A DNA stretch of 64,000 bases, taken from NCBI GenBank assembly GCA_047600485.1, contig JASGKS010000001.1:6976259-7040258 (forward strand), given 5' to 3'. The position numbers were made by a program, and so were the translations under genes. Shown here piece by piece: positions 44,828 to 50,271 of the stretch. Under the pieces are notes generated by a model. That model had not been told where the DNA came from and searched no databases. It saw only the letters and a program-made list of their open reading frames with translations. The first letter of the stretch is position 1. The number at the start of each line of letters is the position of its first letter. The DNA comes from Archangium sp. GTDB taxonomy: Bacteria; Myxococcota; Myxococcia; Myxococcales; Myxococcaceae.

Positions 44828-45759
44828 GATGGGCTGCCGGACCAGGGCAGCCGATTGCGCCGATGCCGCCACCGGTGCGTGCGCCGGCGCCTCCGCCGAA
44901 GAAGGGCGGTGGCTGCTTCAAAATCGTCATCGGCATTCTGGTCGCCTCGTTTCTCTTCTGCTGCTGCATCGTCAGCGCCGCGCTCGAGAGCGCTGACGAC
45001 CCGCTCAACTGGCAGCAGGTGGTGCAGGCGCCCGACGTCGGCCCGCGCACCAACCTGGGAACTGCCGTGGTGCCTGATGATCTCCGCGCTGATCAGACGC
45101 GACGCTACGCGTGGCGCGAGCGGCTCACCGCGTTCGAGCTGCGCTACGGAATTTCGGACGACGTGCATCGCCAGGTGGAAGACGATTTCGCCGAGCTGTC
45201 GGAGCGCTTCGACTACCGCCCGGGAAAAGGCACGAGCTTCACGTGGCTCCCGCCGCCGGCGTGCCGCGGTCGCGAGTGGAACTGCGTGTTCGACTCGCTC
45301 GCCAGCGACAGCAACCAGAACATTCTCGCGCTCACCAGGCTCTTCAAGCAGCGCCAGGAAGCCGAGCAGCTCGATCAACGCGAGCTCGCCGAGCTGGTGA
45401 TCAGCTTCGTGCAGAACATCAAGTACCGGCTCCCCACCGAGGAGACCGCGGCGTTCGGCCTGCTGCCTCCCACCATCGTGGTGAGCGACGGCAGCGGTGA
45501 CTGCGACAGCAAGGCGTTGCTGGCGACGATTCTCCTGCGACAACTCGGCGTCGACGCGGTGGTGCTGCTCGGCTCGAGCCTGGGTCACGCGGCGCTCGGC
45601 GTCGCGCTGCCGGCGCAGGGAAAGAAGTTCGGAAAGAAGTACGCGTTCGTCGAAGTGACGACGCCGGGGTGGACGATTGGGACGATTCCTCCCGGCTACG
45701 ACATCGCGGGCGCGTGGAAGGTGATTCCCGTCACCGTGTCCAAGGGAGAAGACGATTGA
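44824..45759 (+). CDS. Membrane-anchored transglutaminase-like (cysteine protease core) domain protein
   Basis: Pro-rich N-terminus, TM helix. C-terminal VSDGSGDCDSKALLATILLRQLGVDAVVL resembles the transglutaminase-core G-x-C-xxx-A...LR..GI motif. 4-nt overlap with the upstream gene. Confidence 0.45.
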   Translation: MRWAAGPGQPIAPMPPPVRAPAPPPKKGGGCFKIVIGILVASFLFCCCIVSAALESADDPLNWQQVVQAPDVGPRTNLGTAVVPDDLRADQTRRYAWRERLTAFELRYGISDDVHRQVEDDFAELSERFDYRPGKGTSFTWLPPPACRGREWNCVFDSLASDSNQNILALTRLFKQRQEAEQLDQRELAELVISFVQNIKYRLPTEETAAFGLLPPTIVVSDGSGDCDSKALLATILLRQLGVDAVVLLGSSLGHAALGVALPAQGKKFGKKYAFVEVTTPGWTIGTIPPGYDIAGAWKVIPVTVSKGEDD

Positions 45760-47039
45760 AGACGCGTGGCCTGTTCGCCGTGCTCAGTGCGTTGGCGTGG
45801 TCTGCGTGTGGTCCGACTCCGACTCCTCCGAGTGATGCCGGTGTCGATGCGGGAGTCGTCGATGCGGGCACCGACGGCGGTTCGATGGACTTCGACGCCG
45901 GCGTCTGGGACGGCGGCCTGCTGCAATTGAACGACGTCTCGGTGCTCTTCCCGCTCGCTTCGAGCGCGACCGAGCTCTCGACTTCGAGCTTGAAGCCCAC
46001 GGCGATCGGCTCGCGCGGCATGTTGTTTCCGCAGGCCACGTACGACGCGGTCGGGCACATCAGCGGCAGCTCCGGCAATCCTCCGCCGGGTGGAATCGGC
46101 GAAGCGCTCTACCCTGACCTGCACATCGTCGCGGTGCGCGTCGACCCGTGCTTCGCCGAGCTGAACCCCGACCCGCATTCCACGACGTGTGAGAACCAGC
46201 TGCGGTTGATCATTCAGGAAGTGAAGGCCACCGGAGGAACCGGCAACGGCTTCGACTCCGCGATGCACGTCTTCTACCGGCTCAACCGCGCCGAGGTGCT
46301 CGCGTTCGCGCGCGGCGTGGCGATGCTGCGTGAAGCGAACGCGCCGGGGCAACGGCTCGGCAAGCTCGCTCCGCATCCGGTGATGGTGACGCAGGGCCTC
46401 GGCGGAGCGATGGCGAGCGGCGTGCGCGCGTTGATTCTCCGTTACGCCGGCGTGCAGAACTTGATGCGCGTCACGAAGCTGAGCGCGTCGACCGCCGGCT
46501 TCGGTTGGGACTTCTCGGGCTTCGACATCGCGCCCAACGGCACGCTCACCGCGATGGTGATTCCGTCGCTGGCGATGAACGCCACGTCGCAGTCGCTGTT
46601 CTCCGGCTTCAGCATCACCTCGCCCGAGGCGTTCTTCTCGCCGAGCACCACCAGCGCCGACGACTTCACGCGGCTCTCGAGCTCGATGTCGGCCGGCATG
46701 CTCACCATGCAGGAGCGGGCCACGGCGTTCGACGCGCTCATTCGCGTGAATCACCCCGCGCGCAATTCACCGAACACCATCGACTGCGCGAGCTGTCACT
46801 TCGCGACGCCGACCTCGGTGCTCATCGCGAAGGCGAAGTACTCACTCGACGAAGCGACGACCGCGGGCGTGTTCACCGTGACCGGCCCCGCGGTGTTGCC
46901 GACGGAGCTCGTGCCGACCTTCCAGACGACCGGCGGCTTCAACGTGCACGCGTTCAGCTACTTCGACGCCGAGCCGGGCATCAACCAACGCGTGGTGAAC
47001 GAGTCGGCTGCGGTGGTCGAGTTCCTCAATTCACCGTGA
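45756..47039 (+). CDS. Secreted protein, unknown function (single CxxCH motif)
   Basis: TTG start overlapping the upstream stop (TTGA). Signal peptide LFAVLSALAWSAC. Contains IDCASCHF (CxxCH). Confidence 0.45.
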   Translation: MKTRGLFAVLSALAWSACGPTPTPPSDAGVDAGVVDAGTDGGSMDFDAGVWDGGLLQLNDVSVLFPLASSATELSTSSLKPTAIGSRGMLFPQATYDAVGHISGSSGNPPPGGIGEALYPDLHIVAVRVDPCFAELNPDPHSTTCENQLRLIIQEVKATGGTGNGFDSAMHVFYRLNRAEVLAFARGVAMLREANAPGQRLGKLAPHPVMVTQGLGGAMASGVRALILRYAGVQNLMRVTKLSASTAGFGWDFSGFDIAPNGTLTAMVIPSLAMNATSQSLFSGFSITSPEAFFSPSTTSADDFTRLSSSMSAGMLTMQERATAFDALIRVNHPARNSPNTIDCASCHFATPTSVLIAKAKYSLDEATTAGVFTVTGPAVLPTELVPTFQTTGGFNVHAFSYFDAEPGINQRVVNESAAVVEFLNSP

Positions 47040-47502
47040 GCGCGAGCGTCAGCGGCTCTTTCTGAATCAGACACTTCTCGGCGCTGCACACGCTGAACGC
47101 GATGATGCCGTCGAGCTTCGCGGCGCCCGCTTCCTGCGCGGTAAAGGGCAGCTCGAATTCGGCGGCGCACGAGTCTTCGGCCTTCTCGGCGCACGGAGTC
47201 TTCTTCGACGCCGTCAACGGCACACGGTCGCCCGAGAACTTCACGGTGCTCGACGGCGTGACCTTGAACGCCACCGGGTAATCGGGGTTCACGTGGAACC
47301 CGTCTTTCGCGGCGACGTTGATCAACGCTGAACCGCCCTGCCCCGCAGCGACCGCGCCCTTCGCGGCGATGGAAAGCGAGAACGGGTTCGCAGCCGCGCT
47401 GACGGTGTCGGCCGGAGGAGGAACAGCGGCCGGCTCGTCCTTCTTGCAGCCGACGAGCACCACTCCGAGCACGAGGCTCAGTTCGAGTATTTGACGCCGC
47501 AT
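47026..47502 (-). CDS. Lipoprotein, unknown function
   Basis: Lipobox VVLVGC. Confidence 0.5.
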   Translation of the reverse strand: MRRQILELSLVLGVVLVGCKKDEPAAVPPPADTVSAAANPFSLSIAAKGAVAAGQGGSALINVAAKDGFHVNPDYPVAFKVTPSSTVKFSGDRVPLTASKKTPCAEKAEDSCAAEFELPFTAQEAGAAKLDGIIAFSVCSAEKCLIQKEPLTLALTVN

Positions 47503-48074
47503 CCGTACGCTTTCGTGTCGTTGGTCTTCACTGCGCGCTTCGCCGCGAGATCCTCGAGCGCCGCGTCGACGTAGTTGATCAGCACTCCGCCCTGCGGCGA
47601 CTGGCCTTCACCGTCGGGCGAGTTGTCGATGGCGCCGCGGTACACGAGGTTGCCGCTCGCATCGACGATGAAGAGGTGAGGCGTGTTGGTCGCGCCGTAC
47701 GCCTTGCCGACCGTGCCCGACTCGTCGAGCAACACCGGGTTCTCCATCGCGAACGTCTTCACGCCCGCCTTGCTCTTCTCGGCGCCGGCGCCCTGCTTGC
47801 CCGCTCCGCCGGAGTTGATGGACAGCCACACGATGCCCTTCGCCTGCTGCTTCTTCGCGGTGTCGACCAGCGAGCCCTTGCCGTGCGACGCCTTCACGAA
47901 CGGGCACTCGGGGTTGAACCACTCGAGCACCACCGTCTTGCCCTTGAACGAGCTCAACGAGACTTCCTTGCCGTCGAGGTCCTTCAGCTTGAAGTCAGGA
48001 GCGGGCTTCCCGAGGTCGGCTCCAGCGAACGCAGGAGCAGCGACCAGCATCACCAGCGAGAGCAGTGTCTTCAT
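47478..48074 (-). CDS. Thioredoxin-fold redoxin (TlpA/peroxiredoxin-like), periplasmic
   Basis: Signal peptide. PAPDFKLKDLDGKEVSLSSFKGKTVVLEWFNPECPFV is a redoxin-type motif. Confidence 0.7.
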   Translation of the reverse strand: MKTLLSLVMLVAAPAFAGADLGKPAPDFKLKDLDGKEVSLSSFKGKTVVLEWFNPECPFVKASHGKGSLVDTAKKQQAKGIVWLSINSGGAGKQGAGAEKSKAGVKTFAMENPVLLDESGTVGKAYGATNTPHLFIVDASGNLVYRGAIDNSPDGEGQSPQGGVLINYVDAALEDLAAKRAVKTNDTKAYGCGVKYSN

Positions 48075-48092
48075 GAGCGACCTCCTACCACG

Positions 48093-48171
48093 CTCAGTTG
48101 AGGTGATCTCCGCGTCGACTCCACCGGCATGAAGCCACTGCGCTCATGGAGTCGCCGCGGCATCACCTCAA
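48093..48171. promoter_or_regulatory. Long-range 13-bp inverted repeat (cagttgaggtgat ... atcacctcaactg) in intergenic region
   Basis: Perfect 13-bp arms separated by about 53 nt, between the TPR/rhomboid gene stop and the redoxin gene start. Followed by the small hairpin gagcttcgggtaacaagctc. Confidence 0.5.
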
Positions 48172-48191
48172 CTGAGCTTCGGGTAACAAGC

Positions 48192-49844
48192 TCAGCGCGG
48201 GAGCGCCTTCTTCGCTTCCTCTGGAAGCAACGGCCACAGCACCGCGCGTTTCGCCTCGGTCTCACGACCCTCGAGCACCGCGAGGTCCTTCGTCGCCGCG
48301 AACAGCGCGACCTTCGCTTCGATCGACTTCGGGTCCTTCGCGATCATCTCGCGCGCGGGAGCCTCATCGCCCTCACGCACCGAGCACAGGGCTCGCAACG
48401 CACTCGGCAGCTCCGACGAGTCACCCTCGACGAGTTTGCGCGCTGACTCGCAATCACCGCGACCGACCATCCACAGGGCGCGGAAGCTGCGCTTGATGGG
48501 CGACGAGCCCACGAGGGTCGGACACGCCTGCGACTCGAAGTCACCTTCCATGCTCGCGGTGAGACACGACAGCGACGCGCTCGGCTCTTCCTTGAGCTGC
48601 GCCTTCGCGTCGGCGTAGCGGCCCAGGTCGAGGAGCAGCAACACGTAGTCGTCGCTCCACAGCCGCGGTTCCTTCTTCGCGGCGATCGACAACGGCTCGA
48701 CGGCGTCTTCGTCTCGTTCCTGGCGCATCAACCCGTGCGCGAGCAGGCCCTTCGAAATCGCCCAGCTCGGGTGTTCCTTCTGCATGTCCTTCTCGAACGC
48801 CTCGAGGCCCTGGTCGTCCTTCAGCGCGACGAGCGTGTCCATCTTCAGGCGGAGCAGCCGCTCATCTGACGCGTCGTCTTTCAGCGCCTCGTTGAGCACC
48901 ACCAGCGCGCGGTCAGCGTGACCCGTCGAGGTGTACAGCACGCTCACCAGGCCCGGCTGCGCGGTCTTCTTCTCGGGCAGCAACGCGACGCCTTCTTCGG
49001 TGCGGTTCGATTCGATCAACGCCTGCGCACGGAGCAGCGGGTAGAGCTCGTCCTTGCTCAGGTCCTTCCCGTCGGTGAGCGCGATGATCTTCGCCCAGTC
49101 GTTCGCGCCGTACGCGTTGATCAACGCGACGCGATCGATCCACCCGTCGTGAATCTTCGGCAGCGGCCGCAACGACGCGGCAATCAACAGCGCGCTCACG
49201 AACAACGCGACGGGCAGGCGATTGCGACCACCAGGCACCATGCCCGAGGTGATGGCGAGCCCGAGCACGAGGCCCGCGATGGGCGAAATCCAATCGGCGC
49301 CGATGACGGGCATCAACGCCAGCCACGAAATCGTCGTCGCGATGCTGCGCTTCTGCGCGGGGTCGTTCCACAGCGCGCGCCAGCTGCCGTAGCGGAACCA
49401 TTGCAGCGTGTAGATGCCGCCCATGATGACGAACAGCGGCGCGCCGAGCCCGAGGAACACGCCGTCGCGCACGATGCTCACCGTCGCGACCGTCGCCATG
49501 CCACCGACGATGAACAGCAACGCGAAGCGCAGCGAGCCCATCACGCGCTCGAACGACGTCGCGAGGCTGAAGCCCATGAAGATGTTCCACACCAACAGCA
49601 TCGGGCTGTTGTGCACGAAGCTCGCGGTGAAGAGCCGCCACCACTCGCCCGACCACAGCCCCGCGCGATTGGCCGCGCCGTGCGCGATGGCGTTGTTGAG
49701 GTCGCTCGCGTCGCCAGACTTCATCATCGCGAGGAACGTCACGCCCGCCGCGACGAAGGTGAGCATCGTCAACGGAGCGCCCACCACCATCGACATCAGC
49801 CGATTGCCCTGCCCGCCGCTCTCGTCGTCGTGTTCGTCGCTCAC
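48192..49844 (-). CDS. Rhomboid-like membrane protein (apparently lacking catalytic Ser/His) fused to C-terminal TPR-like domain
   Basis: Rhomboid TM2 signature WRLFTASFVHNSPMLLVWNIFMGF. Where GlpG has GLSG this protein has FLGLGAPLF. Where GlpG has the catalytic His this protein has ADWISPIAGL. The C-terminal roughly 300 aa are helical-repeat (TPR-like) rich in A/L/K/E. Confidence 0.6.
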   Translation of the reverse strand: MSDEHDDESGGQGNRLMSMVVGAPLTMLTFVAAGVTFLAMMKSGDASDLNNAIAHGAANRAGLWSGEWWRLFTASFVHNSPMLLVWNIFMGFSLATSFERVMGSLRFALLFIVGGMATVATVSIVRDGVFLGLGAPLFVIMGGIYTLQWFRYGSWRALWNDPAQKRSIATTISWLALMPVIGADWISPIAGLVLGLAITSGMVPGGRNRLPVALFVSALLIAASLRPLPKIHDGWIDRVALINAYGANDWAKIIALTDGKDLSKDELYPLLRAQALIESNRTEEGVALLPEKKTAQPGLVSVLYTSTGHADRALVVLNEALKDDASDERLLRLKMDTLVALKDDQGLEAFEKDMQKEHPSWAISKGLLAHGLMRQERDEDAVEPLSIAAKKEPRLWSDDYVLLLLDLGRYADAKAQLKEEPSASLSCLTASMEGDFESQACPTLVGSSPIKRSFRALWMVGRGDCESARKLVEGDSSELPSALRALCSVREGDEAPAREMIAKDPKSIEAKVALFAATKDLAVLEGRETEAKRAVLWPLLPEEAKKALPR

Positions 49845-49845
49845 G

Positions 49846-50271
49846 TCACGTCCCCAGGTAATGAAGTGCCAGCGCGCGTCGATGCGCCGCGTGGCGGTGC
49901 TCGAACACGTAGACCGCTTGCCATGTTCCGAGCTGCAGCGCGCCGCCTCGCACGGGAATCGAGAGCTGCGTCTGCGTCAGCGCCGCGCGCACGTGGGCCG
50001 GCATGTCGTCGGGCCCTTCGTCGTCGTGCGTGAAGCGTGCGTCGCCGTCGGGCACGAGCTCGGAGAAGAAGCGCTCCAGGTCGACGCGCACCGCGGGGTC
50101 GGCGTTCTCCTGCACCAGCAGACTCGCCGACGTGTGGCGGATGAAGAGTGTCAGCAGCCCATCGACCGCGTTCTCGGAGCGCAGAAACTCACGCAGCGCC
50201 GCCGTGACGTCGAAGAAGCCGCGCCCTCGTGTGGCGACCGTCAGCTCGTGCTGTGCCTGACGCAGCGTCAT
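49846..50271 (-). CDS. YjbQ/UPF0047 family protein (secondary thiamine-phosphate synthase-like)
   Basis: MTLRQAQHELTVATRGRGFFDVT...LLTLFIRHTSASLLVQENADPAVRVDLERFF...HVRAALTQTQLSIPV is the conserved YjbQ fold sequence. Start at the internal Met; the upstream 64 aa of the tracked ORF are Arg-rich, non-coding-like. Confidence 0.8.
   Translation of the reverse strand: MTLRQAQHELTVATRGRGFFDVTAALREFLRSENAVDGLLTLFIRHTSASLLVQENADPAVRVDLERFFSELVPDGDARFTHDDEGPDDMPAHVRAALTQTQLSIPVRGGALQLGTWQAVYVFEHRHAAHRRALALHYLGT

Follow-up and report, generated by a model that had tools for sequence, protein, structure and literature searches.

A rhomboid-TPR protein of Archangium sp. that lacks the catalytic serine and histidine and is encoded in the genomic slot of active-type relatives

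Within a 64,000-nucleotide stretch of DNA from Archangium sp. (contig JASGKS010000001.1; hereafter the window; G+C content about 66%), a gene on the minus strand encodes a 550-amino-acid protein in which a rhomboid-type membrane domain is followed by a helical domain of tetratricopeptide repeats (TPR). As judged from its alignment with active rhomboid proteases, canonical intramembrane proteolysis is impossible for this protein: the Ser-His dyad and one residue of the oxyanion hole are gone, their positions being taken by G134, P188, and L83. What is new here, going by the sequence comparisons, is that a dead copy occupies the orthologous slot of active-type enzymes and is an extreme divergence outlier between neighbors that are conserved at about 80-92%. 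With somewhat better than even confidence, and by analogy with characterized systems, we regard as the best explanation an adaptor-type pseudoprotease of the inner membrane that descended from the active rhomboid-TPR proteases of the Myxococcota. The dead form is known as one sequence from one metagenome-assembled genome (MAG): the query protein (P0001) is identical to entry MFT3712270.1 from the Archangium sp. MAG, which carries the public name 'rhomboid family intramembrane serine protease' despite the absence of the catalytic Ser and His. The gene and those of its parts on which the following account relies are given here with their window coordinates; ORF stands for open reading frame, TM for transmembrane segment, and AF2 for AlphaFold2.

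48192..49844, minus strand: predicted rhomboid-TPR pseudoprotease gene, 550 amino acids, GTG start (ORF listing; P0001, MFT3712270.1)
49149..49844, minus strand: short cytoplasmic tail and 7-TM (6+1) rhomboid-fold domain, residues 1-232 (hydrophobic segments, AF2 helices, Foldseek)
49635..49640, minus strand: retained WR motif, W69-R70 (GlpG W136-R137), scaffold motif of the TM1-TM2 loop (L1) (profile alignment)
49596..49598, minus strand: position of the oxyanion-hole His, lost, GlpG H150 to L83 (profile alignment)
49584-49586, minus strand: oxyanion-hole Asn, retained, GlpG N154 to N87 (profile alignment)
49437..49451, minus strand: position of the catalytic Ser in TM4, GlpG S201 to G134, with G132-L-G134-A-P136 standing for G-x-S-G-A (PDB and profile alignments)
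49281..49286, minus strand: position of the catalytic His in TM6, GlpG H254 to P188, with S187-P188 standing for A-H (profile alignment)
49260..49274, minus strand: retained GxxxG helix-packing motif of TM6, G191...G195 (GlpG G257...G261) (profile alignment)
48195..49148, minus strand: TPR-type helical solenoid of about 20 helices, residues 233-550, predicted to be periplasmic (AF2, Foldseek, family profile)
48384..48566, minus strand: four cysteines, C427, C441, C465, and C487, in invariant columns across the full-length family

An initial annotation of this gene had staked its reading in advance on the N-terminal domain having a rhomboid fold, and the fold was borne out by both profile and structure. 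Residues 66-199 are recognized by the Pfam profile Rhomboid (PF01694) at a level well above chance (E = 4.6e-14; score, 53.3 bits; cut-off, 22.6), and Foldseek matched the AF2 model of the query (mean predicted local distance difference test score, pLDDT, of 83, from a 7-sequence alignment) to the GlpG structure 5f5k in the PDB (TM-score normalised to GlpG, 0.75; root-mean-square deviation, rmsd, 3.7 Å over 193 columns). The TM domain also aligns with the cryo-EM structures of iRhom1/2 (rmsd 3.2-4.0 Å over 170-187 columns). The protein thus possesses the core profile and the three-dimensional fold of the rhomboid superfamily (PF01694/MEROPS S54 fold) along with its WR and GxxxG motifs, and further scaffold residues are kept as well, namely Glu99, Asn87, G132 (GlpG G199 in TM4), and G142, in addition to H78 in TM2, which corresponds to the conserved TM2 histidine of GlpG (H145). 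Seven hydrophobic helices were found in the N-terminal domain, with about 20 residues ahead of TM1 and an L1 loop of about 24 amino acids. The positive charges, as read from the sequence, are grouped in the loops that match the cytoplasmic loops of GlpG; the predicted topology is N-in with 6+1 TM and a periplasmic TPR solenoid.

The catalytic positions were assigned in a profile alignment of Escherichia coli GlpG with 150 cluster representatives collected by an exhaustive HMMER search, which we used in place of a word-indexed protein search that had poor recall for this family and returned essentially only the query. Ser occupies the catalytic serine column in 140 of 144 homologs and His the catalytic histidine column in 129 of 134, while the column of GlpG H150 holds His in 100% of 128 active homologs; a phmmer comparison with PDB chains likewise laid the 'GLSG' of GlpG onto 'GLGA' of the query. 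Since TM4 of the query contains no Ser and TM6 no His, the canonical Ser-His dyad cannot form. Of the hallmarks of an active S54 peptidase, the query therefore lacks the GxSG serine of TM4 and the AHxxG histidine of TM6, and the His150/Asn154 pair of the oxyanion hole is incomplete. The initial annotation, which had claimed that both catalytic residues are absent, quoted three strings, all of which we located in the ORF (WRLFTASFVHN...VWNIFMGF, residues 69-92; GLGAPLF, residues 132-138; ADWISPIAGL, residues 183-192), and the profile alignment agrees with it by placing Gly134 and Pro188 where Ser and His would be expected. The query keeps 22 of the 36 columns that are conserved at a level of at least 80% in the 128 catalytically intact homologs, and the losses are concentrated around the active site (9 of 13 columns near it, compared to 5 of 23 elsewhere; Fisher p = 0.011).

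The C-terminal 318 amino acids are all-helical in the AF2 model, and the C-terminal end of the solenoid carries the conserved motif LWPLLPE..ALPR. Foldseek matched this domain to Tom71, a consensus TPR (CTPR) protein, LbcA, OGT, and APC subunits; a profile of the C-terminal domain of the family matched TPR proteins of the PDB (E = 2.5e-30; LbcA, E = 5e-17), and Pfam TPR families pass their thresholds in the relatives, with TPR_19 reaching 3.6e-19. On these grounds the helical-repeat domain of about 300 amino acids noticed earlier is a real TPR solenoid. Its four invariant cysteines probably form two periplasmic disulfides, and it is from these conserved residues and the 7-TM topology that we infer the periplasmic location of the domain. 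Since catalytically dead rhomboids are best known in eukaryotes, a bacterial one fused to TPRs had been thought worth attention; the fusion is real, but it is not special to the dead form, as it is ancestral in the active Myxococcota family and already known in Firmicutes, and hence it is not new.

The protein belongs to the rhomboid superfamily and, within it, to a rhomboid-TPR family of the Myxococcota typified by P0002 and P0003, with which it shares a colinear architecture and, in the case of its positional orthologs, the place between the genes for YjbQ and a redoxin. Its nearest full-length relatives, which all have the complete motif set WR/H/H/N/GASG/AH, are P0002 (38-39% identical; phmmer E = 8.6e-103 over residues 20-550), P0003, and P0004 (both 31-33%), and all 45 of the 45 further clade members retrieved with P0002 as the query have intact catalytic motifs. 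The active Myxococcota proteins (P0002, the ortholog on L008, P0003, and P0163-P0179), which are annotated as 'rhomboid family intramembrane serine protease', have the same short tail, 7 TM, a PLPxxHD linker, and a TPR domain of about 300 amino acids with four Cys and the LWxLLP...LPR motif. The query is 31-41% identical to these proteins; they keep H150, N154, GASG, and AH, whereas the query has lost three of these four and keeps only the Asn.

Two of the active proteins sit in the very genomic slot of the query: P0002, encoded on contig L004, and the protein encoded on L008, a contig of a GTDB MAG designated 'Archangium sp. new MAG-75'. The window, L004, and L008 have a common gene order of M20 peptidase, YjbQ, rhomboid-TPR, redoxin, small lipoprotein, transglutaminase-like protein, DUF350 protein, and a 224-amino-acid protein. 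Between the window and either of the two contigs, the flanking proteins are 80-92% identical, while the rhomboid proteins are 37-38% identical (TM domain, 43-46%; TPR domain, 31%); those of L004 and L008 are 73% identical to each other. Three-point branch lengths (Poisson) amount to 0.83 for the window copy and to 0.14 and 0.18 for its orthologs, an excess of 5-6-fold in each domain. At the nucleotide level the change is abrupt, with an identity of 88-97% in yjbQ, 35-70% from the rhomboid start codon onward, and again 85-97% in the redoxin gene. Both ends of the rhomboid gene are still ortholog-like, i.e., its first four codons as well as the last 45 nucleotides or so, the stop codon, and 8 nucleotides downstream. 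The GTG start codon lies 1 nucleotide past the yjbQ stop codon, and start codon and coupling are kept in the orthologs, as the alignment with L004 and L008 documents.

By analogy with characterized proteins, the most likely function of the query would be that of a non-proteolytic membrane scaffold or adaptor. Its rhomboid core would dock transmembrane segments of client proteins in a thinned bilayer without cutting them, and the periplasmic TPR solenoid would recruit or regulate a periplasmic partner; overall, the protein might serve as an adaptor, a holdase, or a regulator. The catalytically dead S288A variant of YqgP still functions as an adaptor for FtsH (PMC7231995); in the case of ActH, the TPRs alone activate the amidase LytH, and the associated phenotypes do not require the rhomboid domain (PMC9245657). 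Derlins and iRhoms are client-binding pseudoproteases (PMC12615303, PMC8641752), and a passing remark in the ActH study, with reference to Lemberg & Freeman 2007, has it that some bacterial rhomboids without catalytic residues 'may act as chaperones' (PMC9245657). YqgP/GluP of Bacillus subtilis and ActH of Staphylococcus aureus resemble the query in having a 7-TM rhomboid domain followed by extracytoplasmic TPRs (PMC7231995, PMC9245657), the periplasmic side being a prediction for the query, but unlike it they retain the catalytic residues. ActH has a cytosolic N-terminal domain of about 150 amino acids (PMC9245657) and YqgP a globular metal-binding one (PMC7231995), where the query has about 20 amino acids, and ActH has three TPRs compared to the solenoid of about 20 helices; the likeness to YqgP and ActH is one of shared domains. 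The protease adaptors of the LbcA/NlpI type are TPR scaffolds located in the periplasm, where they present substrates to hydrolases. One of them, LbcA of Pseudomonas aeruginosa, the TPR partner of the protease CtpA, was matched by both profile and Foldseek; it is a soluble lipoprotein without a rhomboid domain, and its likeness to the query is generic to TPR repeats. The 5-6-fold faster change of both domains of the query along with the loss of catalysis suggests that its partners or clients changed too.

Derlins retain the WR and GxxxG motifs and require them. The Derlins (Der1, Dfm1, Derlin-1) have, like the query, a rhomboid fold without the Ser-His dyad, and they bind clients and distort lipid without cleavage (PMC8641752, PMC12615303). 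They are proteins of the eukaryotic endoplasmic reticulum with 6 TM and without TPRs that work with p97 and Hrd1, whereas the query nests among active bacterial rhomboids; a membership in this group was rejected, as the query gave no match to Pfam DER1 at E ≤ 10. The iRhoms (RHBDF1/2, Drosophila iRhom) are 7-TM pseudoproteases that share with the query an extra extracytoplasmic partner-binding domain. Their hallmarks are an extended N-terminus on the cytoplasmic side, the iRhom homology domain, which is large and lies between TM1 and TM2, and a Pro that adjoins the position of the lost Ser (GPxG). The query, with its tail of about 20 amino acids, an L1 loop of about 24, GLGAP in place of GPxG, a C-terminal TPR domain as the extra domain, and its position in a bacterial clade, is not a member of this group either. 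The initial prediction of an inactive, iRhom/Derlin-like scaffold hence stands as far as inactivity is concerned, while the likeness to iRhoms and Derlins is reduced to a functional analogy: their defining features are absent, and the protein nests among active bacterial rhomboid-TPR proteases. The NCBIfam matches to GlpG and to rhombosortase both remained below threshold, and an assignment as a rhombosortase (TIGR03902) was rejected with 30.3 bits against an equivalog cut-off of 84.

Several observations argue against simple decay of the gene and indicate that it is still maintained as a protein. The G+C content at its three codon positions (0.63/0.45/0.90) resembles that of its neighbors, and the alignment with P0002 contains just 7 small in-frame gap events, the ORF being intact. 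When the coding sequence of the ortholog was mutated without constraint to an equal amino acid divergence, indels being ignored, the ORF survived in 0 of 400 simulations with new bases drawn at 66% GC and in 13 of 400 at 87% GC, and all six cysteines of the ortholog survived in at most 2 of 400. In spite of an amino acid divergence of 62% from the active positional orthologs, the ORF, the hydrophobicity of the TM segments, the four Cys, and the C-terminal motif have been preserved. It is against this background that we consider it unlikely that the gene is a functionless relic, that is, an early unitary pseudogene under relaxed selection after the loss of catalysis or the takeover by an active paralog, with its ORF open by chance. 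Such a relic would account for the ratio of nonsynonymous to synonymous substitution rates (omega, dN/dS; Nei-Gojobori, NG86), which is about 1.2 in both domains on the window branch, whereas the ortholog branches have about 0.29 and the neighboring genes of the window 0.2-0.4; it would also fit the loss of 14 of the 36 conserved columns, some of them away from the active site, the drop of the TPR signature of the query alone below the Pfam threshold (TPR_14, 22 bits versus 23.5), and its status as a singleton in all databases searched. It would have to explain why 550 codons have stayed open with normal codon-position G+C content through a divergence that unconstrained simulations survive in 0-3% of the runs even with indels uncounted and in which the Cys are rarely kept, why scaffold motifs have been held selectively while active-site residues were erased, why the model is confident, and why the start codon and the coupling to yjbQ are conserved. 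A search for a P0002-like active paralog on the 9,422,076-bp contig gave no match, but it missed P0001 too and is hence not evidence of absence. Some of the same data also weigh against the adaptor reading: relaxed selection produces the same omega; the TPR signature is eroded; nothing more than 41% identical turned up in the library of 1.84 billion representatives, the GTDB genomes, or the JGI metagenomes, so that the dead state is represented by this one sequence; and the gene context is shared by three genomes only, distant members of the rhomboid-TPR family sitting in unrelated ones, a variable neighborhood that gives no reliable functional clue. The reverse possibility, namely that the protein is still a protease that employs non-canonical residues such as Ser187 in TM6 and His78 in TM2, has in its favor that Ser187 adjoins the former His position and that His78 (GlpG His145) is retained. 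We know of no rhomboid with a dyad of this type, and we count this against the proposal, as we do the lack of a Ser in TM4 and of a His in TM6, the loss of the oxyanion His150, the rewriting of the GxSGA and AHxG motifs, and the fact that with one sequence only the alternative residues have no conservation to back them; we consider it extremely improbable.

Independently of what the protein does, its divergence may have arisen in more than one way, and omega is of limited help in this respect. The synonymous divergence (NG86 dS) of the rhomboid gene is 0.84-0.89, an estimator that according to our calibration saturates at 0.75-1.1 in these genes with a high G+C content at third codon positions, and the identity at fourfold degenerate sites is 55-57% compared to 50-54% in a saturated control; with dS this close to saturation, the omega of about 1.2 is valid only if the divergence arose in place. 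One account, which we hold to be possible though short of an even chance, is an allelic replacement: homologous recombination via the conserved flanks would have brought in an allele that had diverged long before and was already dead, its source being a related but unsampled lineage. Identity drops sharply and within this gene only, the two gene ends being ortholog-like, the synonymous sites are indistinguishable from saturation, and nearby rearrangements (a 97-nucleotide hairpin insertion and an extra ORF of 456 amino acids, both described below) are compatible with a recombination-prone spot. In a neighbor-joining tree with few taxa, the query groups with P0002 and the L008 protein (63% bootstrap) on a terminal branch of 0.81 compared to 0.12-0.16; in a densely sampled tree it falls at the base of the clade (support 55%), and relatives without the shared synteny, whose identity to P0002 is 52-59%, branch inside it; this speaks for a replacement, although a basal placement is also the expected long-branch artefact of the neighbor-joining method. 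The query has the ancestral residue at 4 of 4 strict synapomorphies of the syntenic subclade (derived state, 0 of 4), and among 61 relaxed synapomorphies it carries the state of the subclade at 11 and the commonest other state at 15, which resembles proteins that branch outside the subclade (14-43%) but fits an origin in place as well, provided that about 20% of the states are kept at fast sites; the test is thus no more than suggestive. What speaks against a replacement is that no donor-like sequence above 41% identity was found in any of the collections named above, and that the query is nearest to the P0002 subclade (37-41% versus 31-34% for the rest) and shares 6 of the 14 synapomorphies of the wider clade. 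Were the replacement true, the gene would have evolved for long at ordinary rates, and the dead form may be conserved elsewhere. A recent origin in place under pervasive positive selection (omega of at least 1) appears rather unlikely to us; in this reading, after the dyad was lost, about 60% of both domains would have been rewritten with the fold kept, while the neighbors changed by about 10%. If true, it would provide a natural snapshot of the neofunctionalization of a protease to a pseudoprotease, behind which a new client or partner or else an arms race may have stood, and a prokaryotic counterpart to the origin of Derlins and iRhoms, as postulated in the work on YqgP. Diversifying selection in such an arms race, with the protein as a target, a decoy, or a receptor, for example one at the inner membrane for the entry of a contact-dependent toxin or a phage, seems quite improbable; most of its surface would have been driven to change, and catalysis would have been lost underway. 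It would agree with the about equal acceleration of membrane and periplasmic domains, with an omega of at least 1 if the divergence is in place, with the preservation of fold and ORF, and with a divergence limited to one gene amid conserved neighbors; set against this, the orthologs of L004 and L008 are slow to evolve (73% identity; omega about 0.29), so that hypervariability is not a general property of the locus, the immediate neighbors included no recognized toxin, immunity, or phage genes, and omega is unreliable with dS near saturation.

The genes and elements that flank the rhomboid gene in the window are the following.

49846..50271, minus strand: YjbQ/UPF0047 gene, 92% identical to the L004 ortholog, probable start at Met65 (Pfam and NCBIfam)
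48087..48183, minus strand: window-specific hairpin insertion of 97 nucleotides in the rhomboid-redoxin spacer (alignment with L004 and L008, where it is absent)
47478..48074, minus strand: gene for a secreted redoxin (AhpC/TSA, ResA/DsbE-like), 88-91% identical to L004 and L008 (Pfam/NCBIfam)
47026..47502, minus strand: gene for a small lipoprotein of 158 amino acids that overlaps the end of the redoxin gene, about 50-55% identical in all relatives

Since the yjbQ stop codon lies 1 nucleotide ahead of the rhomboid start codon, the two genes are probably co-transcribed. The small lipoprotein gene is fast-evolving everywhere and hence is not an anomaly of the window. A rhomboid gene between yjbQ and the redoxin gene was found in the window, L004, and L008 only; at about 75 other Myxococcota loci the redoxin gene is present without it, and most of the closest of these rhomboid-less loci also retain the lipoprotein gene. 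We therefore rejected a functional link of the rhomboid to the redoxin as unsupported, because the arrangement is limited to three genomes and the redoxin-lipoprotein pair exists without the rhomboid. Across 80 Myxococcota genomes (loci L008-L087) the redoxin is 58-88% identical, and the gene after it usually encodes a small lipoprotein, evolves fast, and in many cases overlaps the 3' end of the redoxin gene; redoxin and lipoprotein are a widely conserved gene pair independent of the rhomboid. The active-site region of the redoxin (WFNPECPFV) contains a single Cys instead of the usual CxxC, with a second Cys only near the C-terminus (YGCGVKY), and the protein, instead of being a reductase of the ResA/DsbE type, may resemble the 1-Cys or the atypical 2-Cys peroxiredoxins.

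The hairpin insertion is placed between the rhomboid stop codon and the ribosome-binding site of the redoxin gene in a spacer that is otherwise conserved. It folds into a near-perfect hairpin (dG -73 kcal/mol; z -6.7) with perfect inverted arms of 16 nucleotides at 48092-48107 and 48162-48177. Neither the window nor the 171 loci retrieved for comparison contain a further copy, and the searches returned no Rfam family and no consensus terminator or promoter; the hairpin could be an element resembling miniature inverted-repeat transposable elements (MITE) or repetitive extragenic palindromes (REP), or a terminator or attenuator that breaks the coupling between the rhomboid and redoxin genes. A second lineage-specific change lies about 1 kb from the rhomboid gene: an ORF of 456 amino acids on the plus strand (window 45669-47039) whose N-terminus resembles that of a lipoprotein (..LSALAWSACGP..) and which matched nothing in Pfam or NCBIfam is missing from L004 and L008, where the genes for the transglutaminase-like protein and the small lipoprotein adjoin each other.

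Degenerate rhomboids are not restricted to the window. Ser, His, or both are absent in 5 of about 134 full-length proteins among the nearest cluster representatives; within the set of 150 these are P0013, P0035, P0136, P0140, and the query. The gene contexts of P0035 and P0136 were uninformative. P0013, also a rhomboid-TPR protein (L007, 4042-5706), has GNAA for GxSG and Ile for the catalytic His and is independently degenerate; its gene is directly followed by a rhomboid gene with the intact motifs WR..H..H..N..GASG (L007, 5733-6227; the contig ends before TM6). This tandem pair of a dead and an active gene points to a second route by which rhomboid pseudoproteases may arise in bacteria, namely the duplication of a gene and the subsequent degeneration of one copy.

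Rhomboid pseudoproteases, that is, the Derlins and iRhoms, are central to membrane-protein quality control and signaling in eukaryotes. For bacteria, the functional evidence so far comes from the engineered dead YqgP mutant only, and our literature search found no characterized example of a natural bacterial rhomboid pseudoprotease. The significance of the case described here is limited mainly by its being a single sequence from one MAG whose function is proposed by analogy. The naming of proteins by profile skips a check of the active site, and other degenerate homologs may likewise be misnamed as active proteases. The Archangium sp. protein appears to be one of the rare cases in nature in which a bacterial rhomboid protease is becoming a non-enzyme. 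As a matched pair, the active and the dead protein would allow one to ask which residues serve client binding, membrane thinning, and adaptor roles, and they would show at what rate such a protein evolves and how its partner domain changes once catalysis has been lost.

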